Positions 27,883-50,516 of a stretch of DNA of 64,000 nucleotides are shown piece by piece. A model generated the notes under the pieces. The model was not told where the DNA came from. It did not search any database and saw nothing but the letters and a program-made list of their open reading frames with translations. Origin of the DNA: Candidatus Hydrogenedentota bacterium (lineage in GTDB: Bacteria; Hydrogenedentota; Hydrogenedentia; Hydrogenedentales; SLHB01); NCBI GenBank assembly GCA_045863335.1, contig BTVY01000034.1, positions 1-64,000 of the forward strand, given 5' to 3'. The position numbers and the translations under genes were made by a program. Numbering within the stretch: position 1 is the stretch's first letter; each line of letters starts with the position of its first letter.

Positions 27883-28371
27883 TTGGACCTGGAAAAACTT
27901 CGGGAACTCATCGGGATCTTTCAGTCCTCTGAGCTTGCCGAGATCGAAATAGAAGAAGAAGGCCGGCGTATCCGGCTCTGCAAACCCCAAGCGGCGGCCG
28001 TGCACCATCAGCCTGTGCTGGCGCACGTGCCGGCCCCCGCGCACATCGCCGTGGATGCCCAGCAGTCATCGGCCCCACCCATGCAGGGGAGCGTGCCGGT
28101 GTCCCAGGCCGAAGAAATCGAGGAAGGGCTGGTCACCATCGATTCGCCCATGGTCGGCGTCTTCTACGCCGCGCCCGCGCCGGGCGAACCGCCCTTCGTG
28201 ACGCCGGGCGATGAAGTGGAAGCCGGGCAGACGGTCTGTATCGTCGAAGCCATGAAGCTGATGAACGAAGTGGCCGCAAAGGTCCACGGAACGATCGTGA
28301 GCGTGTTGGTCGATAACGGCGAGCCGGTCGAATACAATCAGCCCCTCTTCGCCGTGCGGCCGGCCGAGTAG
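27883..28371 (+). CDS. accB: Acetyl-CoA carboxylase biotin carboxyl carrier protein
   Basis: SPMVGVFY, EAMKLMNE biotinylation motif; TTG start after GGAGGG. Confidence 0.95.
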   Translation: MDLEKLRELIGIFQSSELAEIEIEEEGRRIRLCKPQAAAVHHQPVLAHVPAPAHIAVDAQQSSAPPMQGSVPVSQAEEIEEGLVTIDSPMVGVFYAAPAPGEPPFVTPGDEVEAGQTVCIVEAMKLMNEVAAKVHGTIVSVLVDNGEPVEYNQPLFAVRPAE

Positions 28372-28380
28372 GCGCCGCCC

Positions 28381-29724
<1,344 letters not shown>

Positions 29725-29849
29725 TAGAGGCGTGTCTGCGGGCGCTCCGGTATTGATATTCCCTCTTCCGGGGCGAAAGGGACGGCCCGCGCAAACCCGC
29801 CGCAACCGGTTGGGGGTCGGCTAAGGTCCCGGGAAAAGGAAATCCACTC

Positions 29850-30758
29850 ATGCGAATCCTCCAGACAATCATCCAGAAGCTTGCCTGCGTAGCCGTCCTC
29901 GCCGGAGGCGCCGCCCTGGCCATCTTTTCCGTAAGCGGGCTGTACCAGACGGTCGTCGTGCAGCTTCCCGGACCGAATCCGATGCTGCGAATCGCCATCG
30001 GCGTTGCTGCCGCGGTGCTCGCGGTATTCGCGTTGCTTCCCCTGGGCGGCGGACGGCGCCGATCGCGTGAATTGCGCTTCAATGCCGGGAACGGCCCCGT
30101 AACGATTCAGCTCGATCCCCTTGCCAGCTCGCTCAACAAGACCTTTAACAAGGTGCCCGTTGTGAAGAAAGGAACCGTCCGTCTCACACCGACCAAGGCC
30201 GCAGACAAGGCAAATGTGCACGCCGATGTCCACCTGCTGAATCCGGCGGACGCGAGCGTGCGCGAAACGTCGATCCAATTGAAAACCTACCTCGACGAAC
30301 TGGCCCGCAGCGTCATCGGCGCGGAAGAGGTGGGCGAAGTCGCGGTAAACATCGTCAACACGGAAACGGCGGAACAGCCTGCATCCACGCTGAAATCTTC
30401 CGCGCCCATCGCGGAAGTCGCCACCCCCGTCGCCCGGACCATCCCGGAGCCCGAACCTATCGTAGAAGAACCCATGGTGGTCGAGGATGAGGCGCCGGTT
30501 TCGGAAGACCTCGTCACCTACGAAGAATCCGTGCAGGCCGCCGAGGAAGAGGAACGCTCGCTCACCGGCGAAGCCGAAGATGAGCCGGAACTCCCCGTCG
30601 CCTGGGAGACAGAAGAACCTGATACCGAGGATACGGCTATCGTGCTCGAGGAAGGTGAAGAGTCATCTGACGAAGACACCTCGTTCGACGCCCTCGCCAT
30701 CGAGGAGTCAACGAAGGACGAAGAGGACGACGAGAACCGTCCGGCTTCCGGCGTGTAA
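29850..30758 (+). CDS. Membrane protein: two N-terminal TM helices, AmaP/Asp23-like domain, long acidic tail
   Basis: Two hydrophobic segments, alpha/beta domain ending VGEVAVNIV, Glu/Asp-rich C-terminus; follows accBC as Asp23-type genes do in Firmicutes. Confidence 0.55.
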   Translation: MRILQTIIQKLACVAVLAGGAALAIFSVSGLYQTVVVQLPGPNPMLRIAIGVAAAVLAVFALLPLGGGRRRSRELRFNAGNGPVTIQLDPLASSLNKTFNKVPVVKKGTVRLTPTKAADKANVHADVHLLNPADASVRETSIQLKTYLDELARSVIGAEEVGEVAVNIVNTETAEQPASTLKSSAPIAEVATPVARTIPEPEPIVEEPMVVEDEAPVSEDLVTYEESVQAAEEEERSLTGEAEDEPELPVAWETEEPDTEDTAIVLEEGEESSDEDTSFDALAIEESTKDEEDDENRPASGV

Positions 30759-30766
30759 CAGGTACC

Positions 30767-30832
30767 GATCTAAATTCAAATCACTATCGGGATCGAAGTG
30801 TGTTTCCGATTCCGATTTCGATAGCGATTCGG
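30767..30832. repeat. Degenerate hexamer inverted repeat (CGATnn family)
   Basis: CTATCGGGATCGA...CCGATTCCGATTTCGATAGCGATTCG; same family as 49333-49420. Confidence 0.65.
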
Positions 30833-30854
30833 ACCATGGCAGGTTGGAGTACCG

Positions 30855-31136
30855 TCATCCCGCGAGTTCGCTCACTTCGATTGCCTGAACCTCGGGATAA
30901 TCGTCCACGGCAAGTTCCATCGCCCAGGGCAAATTGTCCACCCGGCTCTTGTCCACCTGTTCCCGCGCCCAGTCCTGCGGACAATACCGGACCTCACCCG
31001 CCATCCCCACCATCGCAAAGAGGTGCGAGGCCAACACCGCCAACCGGTAGTAGGTGCCGGATCGGAATTCCCCGCTCCCCACGAGGTTGTACTTCTTTTC
31101 ATTTACGTAGCGTGCGCCTTCAGGCAATGGCCACAT
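30855..31136 (-). CDS. Small hypothetical protein (93 aa)
   Basis: ATG with GGAGGAG 4 nt upstream; protein-like composition; no overlap with other genes. Confidence 0.65.
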   Translation of the reverse strand: MWPLPEGARYVNEKKYNLVGSGEFRSGTYYRLAVLASHLFAMVGMAGEVRYCPQDWAREQVDKSRVDNLPWAMELAVDDYPEVQAIEVSELAG

Positions 31137-31568
31137 ACCGCTCCTCCGTTCGCACGGGCAACGAAGCCCGTCCCCAATCCCGTCGGCTCCCTGACCGGCA
31201 AATCCCAGCTCAAACTACAAGCGCGACGCCGCTCGAACCCGACACACTTCCCAATCACGGCGTCCACTCAGCCCATTAGCGGACGCCAACCTCAGGCACA
31301 GGACCTGTCGGTACCCCAATGGAAAGCAATCCTCATACCACGGTTGCCTCGCGCCTAACGTATTGCTACCGCGCGACGCAGGATTGGCACAAGCCGCAAG
31401 GCCGCCACATTTGCCGACAAAAATCCGTCGTATCGTCACAAATGCTCATAGGCGCCGCGCTGCCCTGCGGCTTGAACGTCCTTGCCCAAGTCAACGGCCG
31501 AGAAGCCCTCTGACCAAATCCCCGATACCTCAGGCCGGAAAGAGATGCCACCGATGGACAACCTTTAT

Positions 31569-31625
31569 GATTTTGATCATTCGAGTTTGTTTCGGATTTC
31601 GTGCTTCGAATTTCGAGTTTGGGCT
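31569..31625. repeat. Heptamer-based repeat (TTCGnAT/GATTTCG), copy 1
   Basis: About 56 bp nearly identical to 62896-62953. Confidence 0.9.
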
Positions 31626-31775
31626 GCTTGGCACCACCATAAGGGCCCTGGACCGGCGACACGCAGGCCCCCGGGCGGTGCTTGAAAAATATGCATGACT
31701 TGTGCAATAGTGCGCCCACGCACTAGGCGTAGTTGAATGCGGTGTCAGCAGACGCCGCCCCTTGGAGGACCCGTG

Positions 31776-31826
31776 ATGCCACATTCGCTTTCCCACCATC
31801 GATGGCGTCACTATACCCATTCCTGA
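31776..31826 (+). CDS. Putative His/Trp leader peptide MPHSLSHHRWRHYTHS
   Basis: GGAGG (31764-31768), 7 nt, ATG; 5 His + 1 Trp in 16 codons; ends about 120 nt upstream of hisI-trpE-trpG. Confidence 0.65.
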   Translation: MPHSLSHHRWRHYTHS

Positions 31827-31945
31827 ATCCAATCCCGTTTTGTCCCGTTTGTTGATTCCGTCGCCTCGCGACACCGGTCCGTTTTCCGTGGCCCAAATGC
31901 GCGGAGAATTCACCGATAGATCCATTGCCCATGGAGAGGAGTGTC

Positions 31946-32329
31946 ATGGAAGCTGAGAACCCGAAAACCCTGAACGACCTGATCAAGCTCGACGACAAAG
32001 GCCTTATCGTGGCCGTCGTGCAACATCATAAGACGGGGCAGATTCTTATGGTCGGCTATATGAATACCGAATCCTTGGAGGTCACCTTGCGCGAACGGCG
32101 CGCCTGTTTCTGGTCCCGTTCGCGCCAAAAACTGTGGCGCAAGGGCGAGACTTCCGGCAATGTGCTGAACGTCCTCGAAATCCGGACGGACTGCGATGCC
32201 GATGCCCTGCTCCTGAAATGCGACCCCGTGGGCCCGACCTGCCACACCAACGAGACGAGCTGCTTCTACCGCAAGGTGGACTTCGACGGCAGCGTGACGC
32301 TCGATGGTGACGGCGTAGCCAAGGACTGA
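31946..32329 (+). CDS. hisI: Phosphoribosyl-AMP cyclohydrolase
   Basis: WSRSRQKLWRKGETSGN, DCDADALL, CHTNETSCF. Confidence 0.97.
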   Translation: MEAENPKTLNDLIKLDDKGLIVAVVQHHKTGQILMVGYMNTESLEVTLRERRACFWSRSRQKLWRKGETSGNVLNVLEIRTDCDADALLLKCDPVGPTCHTNETSCFYRKVDFDGSVTLDGDGVAKD

Positions 32330-32371
32330 TCGGACCGATCGGTCCGATTGATAGACAAAGGAAAACGACCC

Positions 32372-33853
32372 ATGATTCATCCCACGCTGGAAGAGTTCAA
32401 ACGCATCGCCAAACCGGGTTCCCTGGTGCCCGTCTACCGCGACGTCGTGGCGGACCTGGAGACCCCGGTCACCGCCTATATGAAGATCTCCAAAGACCAA
32501 CCCTACTCGTTCTTGCTGGAAAGCGTGGAGCGCGCCGACTCTATCGGACGCTACTCCTTTCTCGGAGCGAACCCGTCTATCGTGTTTCGTTCGAAGGGGA
32601 CGTCGGTCACGGTTATCCGCGACGGCGTGGAAACGACGAGCGAATCGGAACGGCCACTGGACGAACTCCGCGCGCTCATGTCCCAATATACGCCGGTCGG
32701 TGTCGAGGGCGTCCCCAAATTCCACGGCGGCGCGGTGGGCTACATGTCCTACGACCAGGTCCGCTTCTTTGAAAAACTGCCGGACAACAACCCCGACACG
32801 TTGAATCTGCCCGACCTCTATTTCATGATCACGGATACGATCCTCATCTTCGATCACGTCAACAACCGGCTGAAGATCGTGTCCAACGCCCACGTGCAAG
32901 ACGATCCCGTGGCCGCGTACAACGAAGCAGTCCGCAAGATTCACGAACTCAACCACACGCTGAAACAACCCCTCGTCGTCACCACGGAACGCATCCACTC
33001 CGGCGAACCCAATACCGAGATTCGGTCCAGCTTCACGAAGGACGCTTTCTGCGACGCCGTGAAGAAGGCCAAGGAATACATCTGCGCCGGCGACATCTTC
33101 CAGGTGGTCCTGTCGCAACGCTTCGAGCGGGAAGTCTACGCCAGCCCGATCAATCTGTACCGGTCCCTGCGTTGCATCAACCCTTCCCCCTACATGACAC
33201 TCGTCCGCTACCCCGACTTCACGCTCGTCGGGTCCAGCCCGGAAGTGATGACGCAAGTCACCGGGCGCCGCTGCATGGTGCGCCCCATCGCGGGCACCCG
33301 CCCCCGCGGCGAAACCGTGGAGGAAGACGTCGCGCTGGAAAAGGATCTCCTCGCGGACGAAAAGGAAGTCGCCGAACACGTCATGCTGGTTGACCTCGGC
33401 CGCAACGACGTCGGCCGCGTCAGCGTGCCCGGCACGGTACACCCCAGCCGCATGATGACCATCGAGCGCTACTCCCACGTCATGCACATCGTCAGCGAAG
33501 TGGAAGGCCAACTGAAGCCCGACGCCGACGCCTACGAAGCCCTGCGCGCCACCTTCCCCATGGGCACCGTCAGCGGCGCGCCGAAGATTCGCGCCATGGA
33601 AATCATCGACGAGTTGGAACCCCTCCGTCGCGGCCCCTACTCCGGCGGCTGCGGCTACATCAGCTTCAACGGCGACATGGACACCTGCATCATCATCCGC
33701 ACCATGATCGTCAAGGACCACATCGCCTATGTACAGGCGGGAGCGGGCATCGTCTACGATAGCGTGCCCGAACGGGAGTTCGAAGAAACCGTCAACAAAG
33801 CCAAGGCCCTGTTCCGGGCCGTTGAATTCGCCGAGAAAGGGCTGGAATCATGA
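32372..33853 (+). CDS. trpE: Anthranilate synthase component I
   Basis: LLES Trp-feedback motif, NPSPYM, PIAGTRPRG, GTVSGAPKIRAM. Confidence 0.95.
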   Translation: MIHPTLEEFKRIAKPGSLVPVYRDVVADLETPVTAYMKISKDQPYSFLLESVERADSIGRYSFLGANPSIVFRSKGTSVTVIRDGVETTSESERPLDELRALMSQYTPVGVEGVPKFHGGAVGYMSYDQVRFFEKLPDNNPDTLNLPDLYFMITDTILIFDHVNNRLKIVSNAHVQDDPVAAYNEAVRKIHELNHTLKQPLVVTTERIHSGEPNTEIRSSFTKDAFCDAVKKAKEYICAGDIFQVVLSQRFEREVYASPINLYRSLRCINPSPYMTLVRYPDFTLVGSSPEVMTQVTGRRCMVRPIAGTRPRGETVEEDVALEKDLLADEKEVAEHVMLVDLGRNDVGRVSVPGTVHPSRMMTIERYSHVMHIVSEVEGQLKPDADAYEALRATFPMGTVSGAPKIRAMEIIDELEPLRRGPYSGGCGYISFNGDMDTCIIIRTMIVKDHIAYVQAGAGIVYDSVPEREFEETVNKAKALFRAVEFAEKGLES

Positions 33854-34419
33854 TCGTGCTCATAGACAACTACGACTCATTCACCTACAACCTCGTCCAA
33901 TACTTCGGCGAAATGGAATCGGATATCCGGGTCTTTCGCAACGACGAGATTACCGTGAATCAGGTTCGAGATTTGAACCCCGATCGCATCATCGTTTCTC
34001 CCGGGCCCTGCACTCCCAATGAAGCCGGGATTTCCGTCGAAACCATCAAACGGCTCGGGCCCGAGTTTCCGCTGTTGGGCGTGTGCCTGGGTCACCAAAG
34101 CATCGGTCAGGCTTTCGGCGGCGACGTGGTCCGGGCGGACCGAATCATGCATGGCAAAATCAGTTCGATAACCCACAACGGCAACGCCCTGTTCCGAGAT
34201 GTTCCGTCGCCGTTCGAGGCCACGCGTTACCATTCCCTGGTCATCAAACCGGAGACCTGCCCCGATTGCCTGGATATCATTGCGGAAACCGACCAGAAAG
34301 AGATTATGGCGGTGGCCCACAAGGACTATCCCATCTGGGGAGTCCAGTTCCACCCGGAGAGCATTCTGACGAAGGACGGAAAGCTGATCGTGCGTAACTT
34401 CATGCAGGCCAAAGCCTAG
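33850..34419 (+). CDS. trpG: Anthranilate synthase component II (glutamine amidotransferase)
   Basis: IDNYDSFTYNL, SPGP, GVCLGHQ, QFHPES. Confidence 0.93.
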   Translation: MIVLIDNYDSFTYNLVQYFGEMESDIRVFRNDEITVNQVRDLNPDRIIVSPGPCTPNEAGISVETIKRLGPEFPLLGVCLGHQSIGQAFGGDVVRADRIMHGKISSITHNGNALFRDVPSPFEATRYHSLVIKPETCPDCLDIIAETDQKEIMAVAHKDYPIWGVQFHPESILTKDGKLIVRNFMQAKA

Positions 34420-34529
34420 ACATCGCAGGTCGTGCCTCCCCTAGGGGGCGGCGTTGTGGATCGACGGACGGGGTATGTACGGTACTTCGATACGAAGCCT
34501 GTAAGCGATTCGAAGTCGGCCACTTAGGT

Positions 34530-34558
34530 TTGACTTCCCCTTGGCCGTGTGCTAGAGT
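34530..34558 (+). promoter_or_regulatory. Sigma70-type promoter
   Basis: TTGACT-17 nt-TAGAGT with TG extended -10. Confidence 0.65.
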
Positions 34559-34607
34559 CGGCTGGTTTTGGAGGGGAGTTTTCAAACCTTAGGAAAGGCT
34601 GCGGTCC

Positions 34608-35183
34608 ATGGCCCCAAATAAGAAGCAACTCAAGACGATCGAAGCCCTAAACCGCAACATCCAGATGTGTCAGGAATTCATGAACGACTGGCTGCTGTTC
34701 AACCAGATTCTGAGCGCGTATCCAAGCCCGGGGGTAAACAAGGCTCAGCTTGAAAATCAGTTCTTGAAAATCAAGAGCAAACTGGCTCGCGAACACCAAG
34801 TTCTCAAGGAAGGCTTGGGGTCCGACTACAAATTCGACTCGAACACCATGAACATCATTTCGGGCGCGACGAATCTCGAAGCCATCTACTCCCAGTCCGA
34901 AGTGGCCATCAAGAAGCTTCAGAATGAATGGCACCGTGCGTTCATTTCCATCAATGAAACCCTCGGCGGTCTTGAAGACAAAAAAGCCCGTGCGGAGGCC
35001 GGTGAGAAAGTGTATGTCGGTTCCATGCAGCCGGATGTCAAGACCGGCGGCGGGGGCATGTCCAAGGGAACCAAGACCTTCCTCATCATTCTCGTCATCG
35101 CGGCGATCGTCGCCGTCGTCATGCTGACGGACAACCCGATCAGTGCGTTGTACCAGGATGCGTTCCAGCAAGTATTCGGCTGA
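34608..35183 (+). CDS. Hypothetical helical protein with C-terminal TM anchor
   Basis: Amphipathic helices, Gly linker, hydrophobic FLIILVIAAIVAVVML near the C-terminus. Confidence 0.8.
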   Translation: MAPNKKQLKTIEALNRNIQMCQEFMNDWLLFNQILSAYPSPGVNKAQLENQFLKIKSKLAREHQVLKEGLGSDYKFDSNTMNIISGATNLEAIYSQSEVAIKKLQNEWHRAFISINETLGGLEDKKARAEAGEKVYVGSMQPDVKTGGGGMSKGTKTFLIILVIAAIVAVVMLTDNPISALYQDAFQQVFG

Positions 35184-35282
35184 TGTTCAGCTCCTTTTTT
35201 TGATGAAATGACGAGTGTCCGGTAGTTCCTTCCTTGGCGGGGCGGCGGCAGCTGGTCAGAAATGCAGGCAGGAGTAAAGGGC

Positions 35283-35642
35283 GTGACGAAACGGGAACTG
35301 GTCGTCGATGTTGCCGAGCGGCTCGGCTATACGCAAAACGAAGTTTCCGATGTGGTTCAGGCCACATTGGACGCTATCATCGAACTGCTTTCGGAAGGCA
35401 GGCGTCTCGAGATCCGCAACTTCGGCGTATTCGAACTCCGCACGCGGGATTCGCGCATCGGCCGCAATCCCCGAACGGGCGAGGAAGTGCCCATCTCCGC
35501 CAAACGTGTCGGTACTTTCAAGCCGGGCAAGGCACTGAAGGAATTGGTGCAGAACCAGACGCCGGGCGCTTCGGTGGGAATTGCACCGGCCGCGGAACCC
35601 GCCACGCAGCCCGGAGCCGAGTCGCAAGGCACCGCGTTCTAA
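35283..35642 (+). CDS. HU/IHF family DNA-binding protein
   Basis: MTKREL, LEIRNFGVF, GRNPRTGE, FKPGKALKE; GTG start. Confidence 0.95.
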   Translation: MTKRELVVDVAERLGYTQNEVSDVVQATLDAIIELLSEGRRLEIRNFGVFELRTRDSRIGRNPRTGEEVPISAKRVGTFKPGKALKELVQNQTPGASVGIAPAAEPATQPGAESQGTAF

Positions 35643-35770
35643 CCAGCGCAACCGCCGCATCACCACGCTGCGGGCTTGGTTGCACCGTCCACAGGAAACA
35701 CAGTACGATCATCGTTCGGCTGGGTGTCAGCCCACTTTCTAAACCTGAATCAACACAGACCGCTTGAATT

Positions 35771-36655
35771 ATGAAAACGAAGGCCGAACGGGACCCCGAA
35801 GCGCGCATGACATTCACCGAGCATCTCGGTGAGTTGCGCACCCGCATCATTCGCATCGGGATTGCGTTCATCATCGGCTTCGCCCTCTGCTACATCTTCT
35901 CGAACCAACTCTTTGAAATCCTCAAACGGCCCCTCGATCAGGAGTCGTTGGACCTCTCCTGGATCACGTTCGGCCGACAGGCCGAGGAACCTCAAGACAC
36001 GGGATCGGAAGCGAACGGGGGCGCGGCTGCCGAAGACGCTGGACCCCAGGAGGGCTCACTGAATGACAGCGTCGAGTGGCTCCAGAAAAACCCCCTCGAG
36101 TGGTTTCTCCTGTCCCTGAAGCTATCTGCCTACGGCGGCCTGATCATCATGCTGCCGTACATTCTCTTCCAGATCTGCGGGTTCATCTTTCCTGGATTGA
36201 AACCGGGAGAGAAGCGAATCGTGCTCATGATGCTGATCGGGTGCGGTGCGCTTTCCATCGTCGGCTTGTTGATCGCCTATTTCGGCGTGTTCCCATTGGT
36301 GCTGCCGTACATTCTCCAATGGACGCCCGAAGGCGTTACCACCATGCTCAGCATCACGGAGACCATGTCCATCGTTCTCTTGGGGCTGCTCGGGTTCGCC
36401 GTGGTATTCCAGTTTCCCATGGTCGTGCTGATCCTGGTTTACATGGATCTCCTGACCCCAGCGGCACTTAAGCAATACCGGAAACAGGCCATCGTCGGTC
36501 TGGCCGTGCTTTCGGCGGTGTTGACGCCGCCGGATCCGATCAGCATGACCTTCATGATGCTGCCACTCGTGTTATTGTATGAAGCGAGCATCTGGACGTC
36601 CTACATCGTGGTGCGACGCAAGAAGAAAGCGGCGGAGGCAGACACCGGCGCATAA
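35771..36655 (+). CDS. tatC: Twin-arginine translocase TatC
   Basis: EHLGELRTR, FIFPGL, FQFP, LTPPDPIS, LYE. Confidence 0.96.
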   Translation: MKTKAERDPEARMTFTEHLGELRTRIIRIGIAFIIGFALCYIFSNQLFEILKRPLDQESLDLSWITFGRQAEEPQDTGSEANGGAAAEDAGPQEGSLNDSVEWLQKNPLEWFLLSLKLSAYGGLIIMLPYILFQICGFIFPGLKPGEKRIVLMMLIGCGALSIVGLLIAYFGVFPLVLPYILQWTPEGVTTMLSITETMSIVLLGLLGFAVVFQFPMVVLILVYMDLLTPAALKQYRKQAIVGLAVLSAVLTPPDPISMTFMMLPLVLLYEASIWTSYIVVRRKKKAAEADTGA

Positions 36656-49420: not shown

Positions 49421-49499
49421 AGAATGGCGTGTTAAGAACTACGTTCCGCGCCGCCAAGACTGACGTTCCGTACTACCCATAGCAATTAAGGAGACGTGC

Positions 49500-50516
49500 G
49501 TGGCACTTCGCATGATCGAACTGGCCATCTCCAAGGACGCCGCGGGCGAACTCGATGGCGTGATTGACGAGATCGAACCCCTGGGCGTATTGCGCGGCGC
49601 CCTTGATGACGATCTCATGCTTGTGCGCGTGCTGGTCAGCAGCGAACGGTCGGAGTCCGTCATCGATGCGCTCGAATCCCGGTTCCACGAGAATGCGGCG
49701 TTTCGTCTGCTAATCTTCGAAGTGGCCGCAACGGTACCCACGCCCGACGTCGACGAGCGGGAAAACGACCGCAAGAAAAAGGACAAACGTGATTCCGGCG
49801 ACGAAGAGCCCGAGCGGGTCGCCGTGGCGGAGTTGGTCGAAGATCTGTCATCCGGGGCCAAGGTCAATCGCGCCTACATCTTGATGGTGCTCCTGTCTGC
49901 TGTCGTCGCGGCCGTCGGCCTGATGCGCGACAACGTGGCCGTGATCATCGGCGCCATGGTCATCGCGCCCCTTCTGGCACCGAACATGACGCTGGCCCTC
50001 GCCACGACCCTCGGCGACTTGAAGCTGGCCCGGAGCGCCTTATTCGTCAACATAGTCGGATTCATGCTCGCGCTTCTCGTCGCGACCCTCGCTGGCATGC
50101 TCGTCCCCTTCGACCCGACGGTTCGAGAGATTGCGACCCGCACCGATACCTCGTTCAGCGATATCGCCGTCGCACTGGCCGCGGGCGTCGCGGGCGTGCT
50201 CGCGTTTACGACAGGGGTCTCGGCAACGCTGGTTGGGGTCATGGTTGCTGTCGCACTATTGCCGCCGCTGGTCGCCGCGGGATTGCTCCTCGGCTCCGGC
50301 GACTGGTTTCTCGCCTCGAAAGCGCTCCTGCTCGTCGCCACCAACGTGATCTGCATCAACCTCGCCGCCGTGGGCGCGTTTCTGTTTCAGCACGTCCGCC
50401 CCCGCTATTGGTGGGAGGCCGAGCGGGCAAGAAAGATGGTTTTGCTGGCAAGTGTGGTGTGGGTCCTGATGCTCGCGGCGCTGGTTGGCCTGATCGTGCT
50501 CGCACAACAGGAGTGA
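49500..50516 (+). CDS. TIGR00341/DUF389 family membrane protein
   Basis: AVIIGAMVIAPL, GVMVAVALLPP, NVICINLA. Confidence 0.9.
   Translation: MALRMIELAISKDAAGELDGVIDEIEPLGVLRGALDDDLMLVRVLVSSERSESVIDALESRFHENAAFRLLIFEVAATVPTPDVDERENDRKKKDKRDSGDEEPERVAVAELVEDLSSGAKVNRAYILMVLLSAVVAAVGLMRDNVAVIIGAMVIAPLLAPNMTLALATTLGDLKLARSALFVNIVGFMLALLVATLAGMLVPFDPTVREIATRTDTSFSDIAVALAAGVAGVLAFTTGVSATLVGVMVAVALLPPLVAAGLLLGSGDWFLASKALLLVATNVICINLAAVGAFLFQHVRPRYWWEAERARKMVLLASVVWVLMLAALVGLIVLAQQE

Follow-up and report, generated by a model that had tools for sequence, protein, structure and literature searches.

Leader-peptide attenuation is a textbook mechanism that is known almost entirely from a few cultivated phyla. 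In the trpL leaders of Escherichia coli (Rfam RF00513) and Sinorhizobium meliloti, a short open reading frame (ORF) with its own ribosome-binding site, and with Trp codons near its 3' end, precedes an anthranilate-synthase gene. In Sinorhizobium only the trpE(G) unit carries trpL and the other trp operons do not, according to PMC6614838. A second group, the Rho attenuators controlled by an upstream ORF (uORF), includes tnaC, speFL, cruR, mgtL and corL; in these, a ligand drives the stall or the leader is remodeled by the uORF, and at tnaC and speFL a ribosome held at the end of the uORF shields a Rho utilization (rut) site that is exposed once the ribosome is released (PMC12360218). Here we analyze a 64,000-nucleotide stretch of DNA from Candidatus Hydrogenedentota bacterium (the window; assembly GCA_045863335.1, contig BTVY01000034.1, positions 1 to 64,000), in which a short ORF precedes a mixed hisI-trpE-trpG operon; all features described below lie on the forward strand. 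We propose that this ORF is most likely a trpL-type leader, that is, a short translated ORF before (hisI-)trpE-trpG that reports the supply of charged tRNA-Trp and gates the operon by means of a stalled ribosome. A Trp-sensing leader that gates hisI-trpEG is the secure core of this proposal; how a stall leads to the output is far less certain.

What distinguishes this ORF from a chance reading frame? The ORF, MPHSLSHHRWRHYTHS, extends from 31776 to 31826 and consists of 16 codons and a TGA stop codon at 31824-31826 (ATG CCA CAT TCG CTT TCC CAC CAT CGA TGG CGT CAC TAT ACC CAT TCC TGA). It contains 5 His, 1 Trp and 1 Tyr; the Arg-Trp-Arg codons CGA TGG CGT occupy 31800-31808, the His codons are at 31782, 31794, 31797, 31809 and 31818, and a GGAGG Shine-Dalgarno (SD) sequence at 31764-31768 lies 7 nt before the ATG. 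A preliminary description of this stretch had given the same SD, start, end and His, Trp and Tyr content, all correctly, and had suggested looking for a conserved short uORF before hisI-trpE in related genomes. We defined such a uORF as an ORF that begins with ATG, encodes Arg-Trp at most 10 codons before its stop and lies within 330 nt of hisI on its upstream side. By this definition, 88 of 100 hisI-trpE loci have a uORF, with its own SD, 60-260 nt ahead of hisI, and its Arg codon is CGA (CGA-TGG) in 83. The loci belong to a set of 110 from Hydrogenedentota obtained in two fetches (30 and 80), 16 having been omitted, mostly low-identity copies from family f11 and fragments; hisI was matched in 126 of 135 Hydrogenedentota genomes, and trpE follows hisI in 100 of the 110 loci analyzed. 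Two of the 12 hisI-trpE loci that have no uORF have truncated upstream DNA, and one of these two (G109) has the leader on another contig. L179 and L180, from other orders of the phylum, contain hisI-trpE and no such uORF by the criteria used.

The architecture of the leader is conserved together with its presence. Over 85 unique leaders, ATG and CGA are separated by exactly 9 codons in 53 and CGA and the stop by exactly 8 codons in 56, and the main-class peptides follow the consensus M-[P/S]-S-H-S-x-x-x-[R/W/H]-R-W-R-H-x-x-H-[S/A]-stop. In 43 aligned leaders, the ATG is invariant and the GG of the GGAG is at least 90% conserved. Distant lineages carry longer uORFs (approximately 27-37 codons) that end in F/H/Q-R-W-stop and usually lie just after hisF; the start codons of these long-class uORFs, like those of some hisI genes, are our own assignments. 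R1, a covariance model built on short-class leaders, yielded a single hit per genome in 59 of the 135 genomes; its strong hits adjoin hisI, and its sole hit in the window genome spans 31758-31830 with 63.1 bits. Rfam cmscan of positions 28000-36000 at E <=10 gave no match in the leader, including to Trp_leader (RF00513) and His_leader (RF00514), and returned two chance matches outside it, one to a miRNA model and one to a snoRNA model. Because its position, length, SD and core codons are conserved in 88 of 100 loci and R1 gives single hits, the leader ORF, judged by comparison of sequences, is not a chance ORF. Conservation across the order extends to the ORF with its SD and length, to the CGA-UGG-CGU core and to the helix P1 described below.

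Two side observations concern the same region. The ATG within CGATGG opens an overlapping ORF in the +2 frame (MASLYPFLNPIPFCPVC and a stop codon; 31802-31855), and a similar out-of-frame ORF occurs in L128. In L019, L144 and L154 (family f5, genus g24), which have no leader, a long inverted repeat, CACCACAGAGGCACGGAGG ... CCTCCGTGCCTCTGTGGTG, separates hisF from hisI; its appearance is that of a palindromic insertion or a strong hairpin that has taken the attenuator's place.

Loci in which hisI and trpE are separated indicate which gene the leader accompanies. In the genomes G019 and G030, hisI is located elsewhere and is divergent, and R1 hits directly upstream of trpE-trpG. Likewise, hisI is not beside trpE in family f11; trpE was found in 22 of 23 f11 genomes, an Arg/Trp leader precedes it in 21 of the 22 upstream regions, and the 22nd region is only 35 nt long. 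Several f11 leaders hold two to four Trp codons (e.g., ...HWWWRWRR... and ...HWWRRW...), and across the leader uORFs TGG occurs 108 times in frame versus 11 and 6 times in the other frames. From this distribution we conclude that the leader belongs to trpE, not to hisI. Because the leader stays with trpE when hisI is separate, we take Trp to be the primary signal, with His playing no more than a secondary part. The joint sensing of His and Trp put forward in the preliminary description is therefore retained in part: Trp is the conserved regulatory codon, but an equal role for His does not fit a leader that follows trpE when the two genes part. In f11 leaders L208, L210, L212-L215, L217, L221 and L222, which lie directly before trpE, we also note a second block, (G)LEQH, conserved as peptide or as nucleotides a few codons before Arg-Trp; it may serve as a pairing partner or act as peptide.

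In the window genome (G000), the trpE unit alone was seen to carry the leader. A scan of this genome for SD-led uORFs containing CGATGG returned 41 hits with nothing else leader-like among them, as judged on the peptides and downstream sequence, the hit locations not having been mapped. The regions upstream of trpD-trpC-trpF and of trpB-trpA, both on contig C48, contain no such uORF when read. On the same contig (~45115-45300 and ~49445-49600), the trpD promoter-like region, 5' untranslated region and approximately the first 17 codons are duplicated upstream of trpB. The shared block begins GTTTGACA.CTAAGTGCTGA.ATTGCTACG and includes ATGATTCAAGA.GC.ATCGC; neither copy has an Arg-Trp uORF, and the block may be a shared operator or leader for these two other trp units.

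The Trp codon is also part of one strand of a conserved RNA helix, P1. The 5' strand, GTGATGCCA (31773-31781), covers the leader start codon and pairs with the 3' strand, TGGCGTCAC (31803-31811), which comprises the Trp-Arg-His codons; in the window P1 has 9 pairs, one of them G-U, and is present in the minimum free energy (MFE) fold. The pairing of these two segments, already pointed out in the preliminary description, turns out to be part of a helix with covariation support. On a MAFFT alignment of 43 leaders that was made without reference to any structure (A3), 74.8% of P1 cells are paired, versus 28-59% when the partner is slid by 1-3 columns. Pair 17-59 covaries (UA 15, CG 12, GC 3, GU 1, UG 1, unpaired 11), as does pair 18-58 (GC 27, AU 4, GU 3, UA 1, unpaired 8), and the A2 alignment is similar. 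Read by eye, P1 pairs CGA with UCG, UGG with CCN or UCN, and CGU with AUG. The fourth residue is variable because a U-A to C-G change in P1 turns His CAC into Arg CGC. Similarly, CGA and CGT are minor codons, representing 10% and 13%, respectively, of the Arg codons in long ORFs of the window genome, and the core nevertheless uses CGA in 54 of 54 and CGT in 42 of 54 leaders, a choice that P1 pairing explains. Since P1 explains CGA, UGG and CGU, part of the Arg-Trp-Arg conservation resides at the RNA level.

Other structures in the leader are less widely shared. Upstream of the leader SD, hairpin P0 (31739-31758; GCGGTGTC / GACGCCGC) is found in the MFE fold and in the RNAalifold consensus of the genus, where its basal 4 pairs are invariant and its upper pairs vary without clean compensation. 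CGGTGTC (31740-31746) had been assigned two alternative partners, and both exist, GACGCCG at 31751-31757 and GACACCG at 31870-31876. However, GACACCG is perfect only in L001-L003, is weak in L004-L006 and is not chosen by RNAalifold, and we rejected it as an alternative partner; by our estimate, approximately one 7-nt complement is expected by chance within a 200-nt leader. An outer helix, in which the leader SD pairs with a pyrimidine segment located at the stop or behind it, has 9 pairs in L117 and 7-8 in L012 and L128. It beats shuffles in a subset of leaders (z < -1 in 39%), but overall it is weak, with 54% of cells pairing in one register and a mean z of -0.62 versus shuffles. In the genus of the window, shuffled sequences even pair better (approximately -10 kcal/mol versus -7 kcal/mol for the native ones). 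We therefore rejected the outer helix as a universal feature and retain it for some lineages only. By eye, the nesting order of P1 and the outer helix is swapped in the long-uORF class.

Downstream of the core, a C/U-rich, G-poor, rut-like tract with UCC/UUCC anti-SD-like words extends from the 3' end of the uORF past the stop (31809-31878). Over the 70 nt after UGG-CGU, the window tract has 36% C and 17% G (C/G 2.0), a ratio among the highest 1.5% of the genome's 70-nt windows; over 85 leaders the median C/G is 1.88 versus a genome 95th percentile of 1.65. The post-stop composition of the 85 leaders is C 41%, T 31% and G 16% from +1 to +10 and T 45%, C 27% and G 16% from +20 to +30, with pyrimidines at approximately 72% and G at 16-17% out to +40, and with T at 38-45% in a U-rich zone from +15 to +40. 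At least 6 U occur within some 8-nt window in 58 of 85 leaders. UUUCC is present in 55 of 85 post-stop segments versus 19.7 in shuffles, the shuffled controls for this word, for terminators and for SD duplexes keeping mononucleotide content only. Rho is encoded in the genome (PF07497, 120 bits). By its composition and the presence of a Rho gene the tract qualifies as rut-like, which is no proof of Rho binding. A terminator scan of the window detected no terminator-like site between the uORF and hisI, and two sites inside hisI at 32088-32103. The preliminary description had remarked both on the C/T-rich tract after the stop and on the lack of a hairpin plus U-tract terminator; the former is confirmed by the composition profile of the 85 leaders, and the latter is borne out in the window and by the lack of enrichment over those leaders that is quantified below.

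We propose the following mechanism. When Trp is scarce, the first ribosome would stall with UGG in the A site and hold P1 open; in many lineages the same stall would also keep the outer helix open. The stalled ribosome would occupy the start of the pyrimidine tract, and RNA polymerase would continue into hisI-trpEG. When Trp is plentiful, the ribosome would finish and leave, the leader would close over its own SD and AUG, and no second ribosome would load. The naked pyrimidine tract would then let transcription end, most likely by Rho; this route is favored because all lineages share a C-rich, G-poor tract and hairpin terminators are missing. In some lineages (e.g., L137, L133, L112 and L012), U-runs directly behind the closing helix may act as large-stem intrinsic terminators.

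A number of points weigh against this proposal. First, textbook trp leaders have at least two Trp codons in tandem; here UGG is invariant and typically 6 codons before the stop, but most leaders have a single Trp codon. Second, the conservation of CGA-UGG-CGU is at the nucleotide level and is partly due to P1, and conservation alone is no proof of codon sensing. Third, no conserved antiterminator/terminator pair was found among the leaders: a conserved, mutually exclusive pairing was not identified alongside P1, and the outer helix is found in a subset only. Likewise, canonical hairpin-plus-U terminators between the Trp codon and hisI are not enriched, occurring in 12 of 85 leaders versus 7.9 in shuffles. 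Fourth, a ribosome stalled at UGG covers approximately 13 nt of a tract of approximately 70 nt, and occlusion of a rut site is a geometric argument, not a result. Fifth, the genomes are related metagenome-assembled genomes, and the counts given throughout are not independent events and overstate independence. Finally, contigs of RNA library X6 span 31591-31964 and 32022-32416 and those of X16 span parts of hisI only; the four RNA-library runs are all stored as contigs, which cannot show transcript starts, ends or levels, and DNA carry-over is possible.

Could the same leader also report on His? The richness in His codons to which the preliminary description drew attention extends beyond the window. 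In 84 unique uORFs, CAT and CAC occur 193 times in frame (11.5% of codons) versus 37 and 46 times in the other frames; codons for Gln, Tyr and Asn show no comparable in-frame excess, and the proteome background of His is approximately 2.7%. The main class has 2.5 His codons per leader, with His at +3 after Arg-Trp in 29 of 54 leaders (CAC 20, CAT 9) and at +6 in 37 of 54 (CAT 24, CAC 13). His after Trp is also commoner where hisI follows: at least one such codon is found in 51 of 55 main-class (hisI-type) leaders versus 7 of 21 unique leaders directly before trpE (the latter counted by eye), a contrast that depends on one large clade, f11, and two single genomes. The His codons are confounded in two ways: the +3 codon takes part in P1, and CAUUCC doubles as an anti-SD-like word. 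The rationale that can be offered is that His starvation must also open the gate because hisI sits behind the Trp gate, and for the same reason the conserved His codons after Trp may let a shortage of His open it. We regard a real His input to the leader as possible, with the balance leaning against it. A more elaborate version is doubtful: a bivalent His+Trp sensor with no terminator hairpin, in which a ribosome starved at UGG or at either of two fixed His codons would park on the rut-like tract and block Rho. Such a sensor would reverse the tnaC geometry in a biosynthetic operon; its His codons would have been recruited because hisI came behind the Trp gate, and the helix between start codon and Trp codon would make it a one-ribosome, single-use device.

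In the preliminary description, a ribosome stalled at the late His/Trp codons would cover the anti-SD segment or a Rho rut site. The first of these options amounts to translational attenuation of the ermC type: CAUUCCU at the end of the uORF would mask the hisI SD, and a stall at the late His or Trp codons would free it. The segments are at the coordinates it gave, namely the anti-SD segment CATTCCTGAATCCA at 31818-31831 (which takes in the final two sense codons, the stop and the next 5 nt) and its predicted partner, the hisI ribosome-binding region TGGAGAGGAGTG, read from the sequence at 31932-31943. The CAUUCCU/AGGAGUG helix is in the window MFE fold and in the RNAalifold consensus of the genus, with 7 pairs in 5-6 of the 6 sequences, and in folds of the window leader (L001) the probability that the hisI SD is unpaired rises from 0.14 to 0.31 once a ribosome masks UGG (0.12 with a ribosome at the stop), a modest effect. 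The in-frame enrichment of His codons, the use of both synonymous His codons at +6 and +3, the surplus of His after Trp in hisI-type over trpE-direct leaders and the enrichment of UCC/UUUCC words after the stop would fit as well. However, the pairing is confined to the genus, where the six genomes show only one-sided changes and no compensatory change. Duplexes of the hisI SD with the uORF end average -11.6 kcal/mol over 70 leaders versus -11.4 kcal/mol for shuffles (z -0.05), and in partition-function folds the partner of the hisI SD shifts position between loci. Ribosome-masked folding of 85 leaders, a second check that had been suggested, leaves the accessibility of the hisI SD flat (0.37 unmasked, 0.37 at UGG and 0.36 at the stop); in the UGG-stalled state it is higher in 9 and lower in 7 of the 85. 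In addition, a ribosome with UGG in the A site would, by geometry, end approximately 2 nt before CAUUCCU and leave it unmasked, and the contrast in His content has the dependence on f11 and two single genomes noted above. On the basis of the wandering partners, the shuffle-level duplex energy and the absent shift in masked folding, we rejected translational attenuation via the anti-SD and consider this explanation unlikely.

Peptide-mediated arrest is a very unlikely explanation. On this view, Arg-Trp-Arg(-His) would arrest the ribosome, perhaps in response to free Trp or some other ligand within the exit tunnel, in the manner of TnaC and SpeFL, and the operon would be off at high Trp. The motif is indeed invariant and at fixed distances from start and stop, and in several lineages Trp is the last sense codon (FRW, HRW or QRW before the stop). 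These Trp-last leaders match the geometry of TnaC and SpeFL as it is given in PMC12360218, with a rut-like tract beside the stop. Yet only approximately 3-5 residues are conserved, and these are held at the nucleotide level by P1, as the CGA and CGT counts show, while the remaining peptide varies freely. The Trp codon is multiplied in some lineages (WWWRWRR), as codon sensing predicts. Moreover, a nascent chain of 10-11 residues at the stall barely reaches the tunnel constriction. Finally, it is likewise very unlikely that the element acts as RNA only, as a protein or ligand binding site or a processing signal with the ORF a by-product of P1 and the pyrimidine tract. In favor of this reading, the core is conserved in its nucleotides, and P1 accounts for CGA, UGG and CGU through their pairing with UCG, CCN and AUG. 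Against it stand the invariant ATG, an SD kept at the proper spacing, an open frame of fixed length in otherwise highly divergent sequences, an enrichment of His and Trp codons that is limited to this frame, and the lack of any Rfam match at E <=10.

A trpL-type leader that reports Trp thus remains the explanation that we prefer, and the genes that it would control are those expected from the preliminary description, a mixed operon behind a translated-looking leader ORF, confirmed by Pfam. hisI (phosphoribosyl-AMP cyclohydrolase; PF01502, E 4.8e-34) extends from its ATG at 31946 to 32329, trpE (anthranilate synthase component I; PF00425 and PF04715) from its ATG at 32372 to 33853, and trpG (glutamine amidotransferase component II; PF00117) from 33850 to 34419, overlapping the trpE stop. 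trpE follows hisI in 20 of the 80 loci returned by a scan, 19 of Hydrogenedentota type and one from a record labelled Omnitrophica, and does not in the remaining 60, all from other phyla. Upstream of the uORF, a consensus scan located a promoter-like site at 31682-31711 (TTGAAA, 18 nt, AATAGT, with a TG upstream); the block is conserved in an alignment of the genus' six genomes and would put the transcript start approximately 55-60 nt ahead of the leader's ATG. In loci with hisF in front of the leader, the last hisF codons (...AK.GV.VR. and the stop) hold a promoter-like TTGCAA ... TGTGCGAT block (L016, L027, L040, L045, L046, L048, L086, L195, L196, L198 and L200). Because this block resembles the TTGAAA ... 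TGTGCAATAGT block upstream of the window leader, it suggests an internal promoter conserved together with the leader.

The surroundings of the operon offer two other observations. The flanking ORFs at 29850-30758, 30800-31279 and 34608-35183 (302, 159 and 191 aa, respectively) have no Pfam match at E <=0.001. Within 31541-31634, a short TTCGAG/TTTCG-rich element (~31569-31622) has very high summed RNA-library contig depth (1102 in X6), and many different RNA-library contigs continue from it, in both directions, into sequence that is unrelated; the element resembles a widespread short repeat, separate from the leader.

A full-text literature search, with most subscription journals outside it, found no paper on Hydrogenedentes or Hydrogenedentota that deals with attenuators, trpE or leader peptides; within the same scope, which does not cover older comparative-genomics papers on attenuators, no His+Trp leader or hisI-trpE leader is described. 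Throughout Hydrogenedentota, an uncultivated candidate phylum, leader-peptide attenuation would be conserved in a form of its own: a single Trp codon is set in a fixed Arg-Trp-Arg, the sensor codon pairs with its own start codon, and a rut-like tract takes the place of the canonical terminator. A possible second input, His, would be tied to the odd placement of hisI before trpEG and, if true, would make this the first His+Trp multivalent leader within the literature searched. For annotators, the leader provides a compact, searchable motif with one hit per genome.

How, then, does this leader compare with those already described? It shares with trpL the short ORF with its own ribosome-binding site before an anthranilate-synthase gene and the placement of Trp near the 3' end of that ORF, not far ahead of the stop, and it shares with the S. 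meliloti system the pattern in which the trpE unit has a leader and the other units, trpD and trpB on C48, have none. In contrast to trpL, it mostly has one invariant Trp codon, flanked by Arg, whose pairing partner is the start codon of the same leader. No conserved terminator/antiterminator pair, canonical terminator or Rfam match was found for it, and its first structural gene is often hisI. Similarly, it resembles hisL (RF00514) in the in-frame enrichment of His codons, but these lie apart from one another, at the fixed positions +3 and +6 behind Arg-Trp, instead of forming a run of seven. In thrL and ilvL one leader reads more than one amino acid, and the leader described here may do likewise. 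With ermC and cat it has in common a short leader ORF followed by a gene whose purine-rich SD is able to pair with a pyrimidine segment of the leader, but here conservation of the pairing ends with the genus, and no switch is seen on masked folding. Finally, it is like tnaC and speFL in having a uORF directly upstream of a C-rich, G-poor tract, in the proposed logic and in the presence of a Rho gene. In tnaC and speFL, a ligand in the exit tunnel stalls the ribosome at the stop codon and induces catabolic genes, whereas in the Hydrogenedentota leader a lack of charged tRNA at a sense codon would cause the stall and induce biosynthetic genes, with a putative dependence on Rho. The leader thereby offers a simple test of whether starvation-stalled ribosomes gate Rho in the way that ligand-stalled ribosomes do at tnaC.

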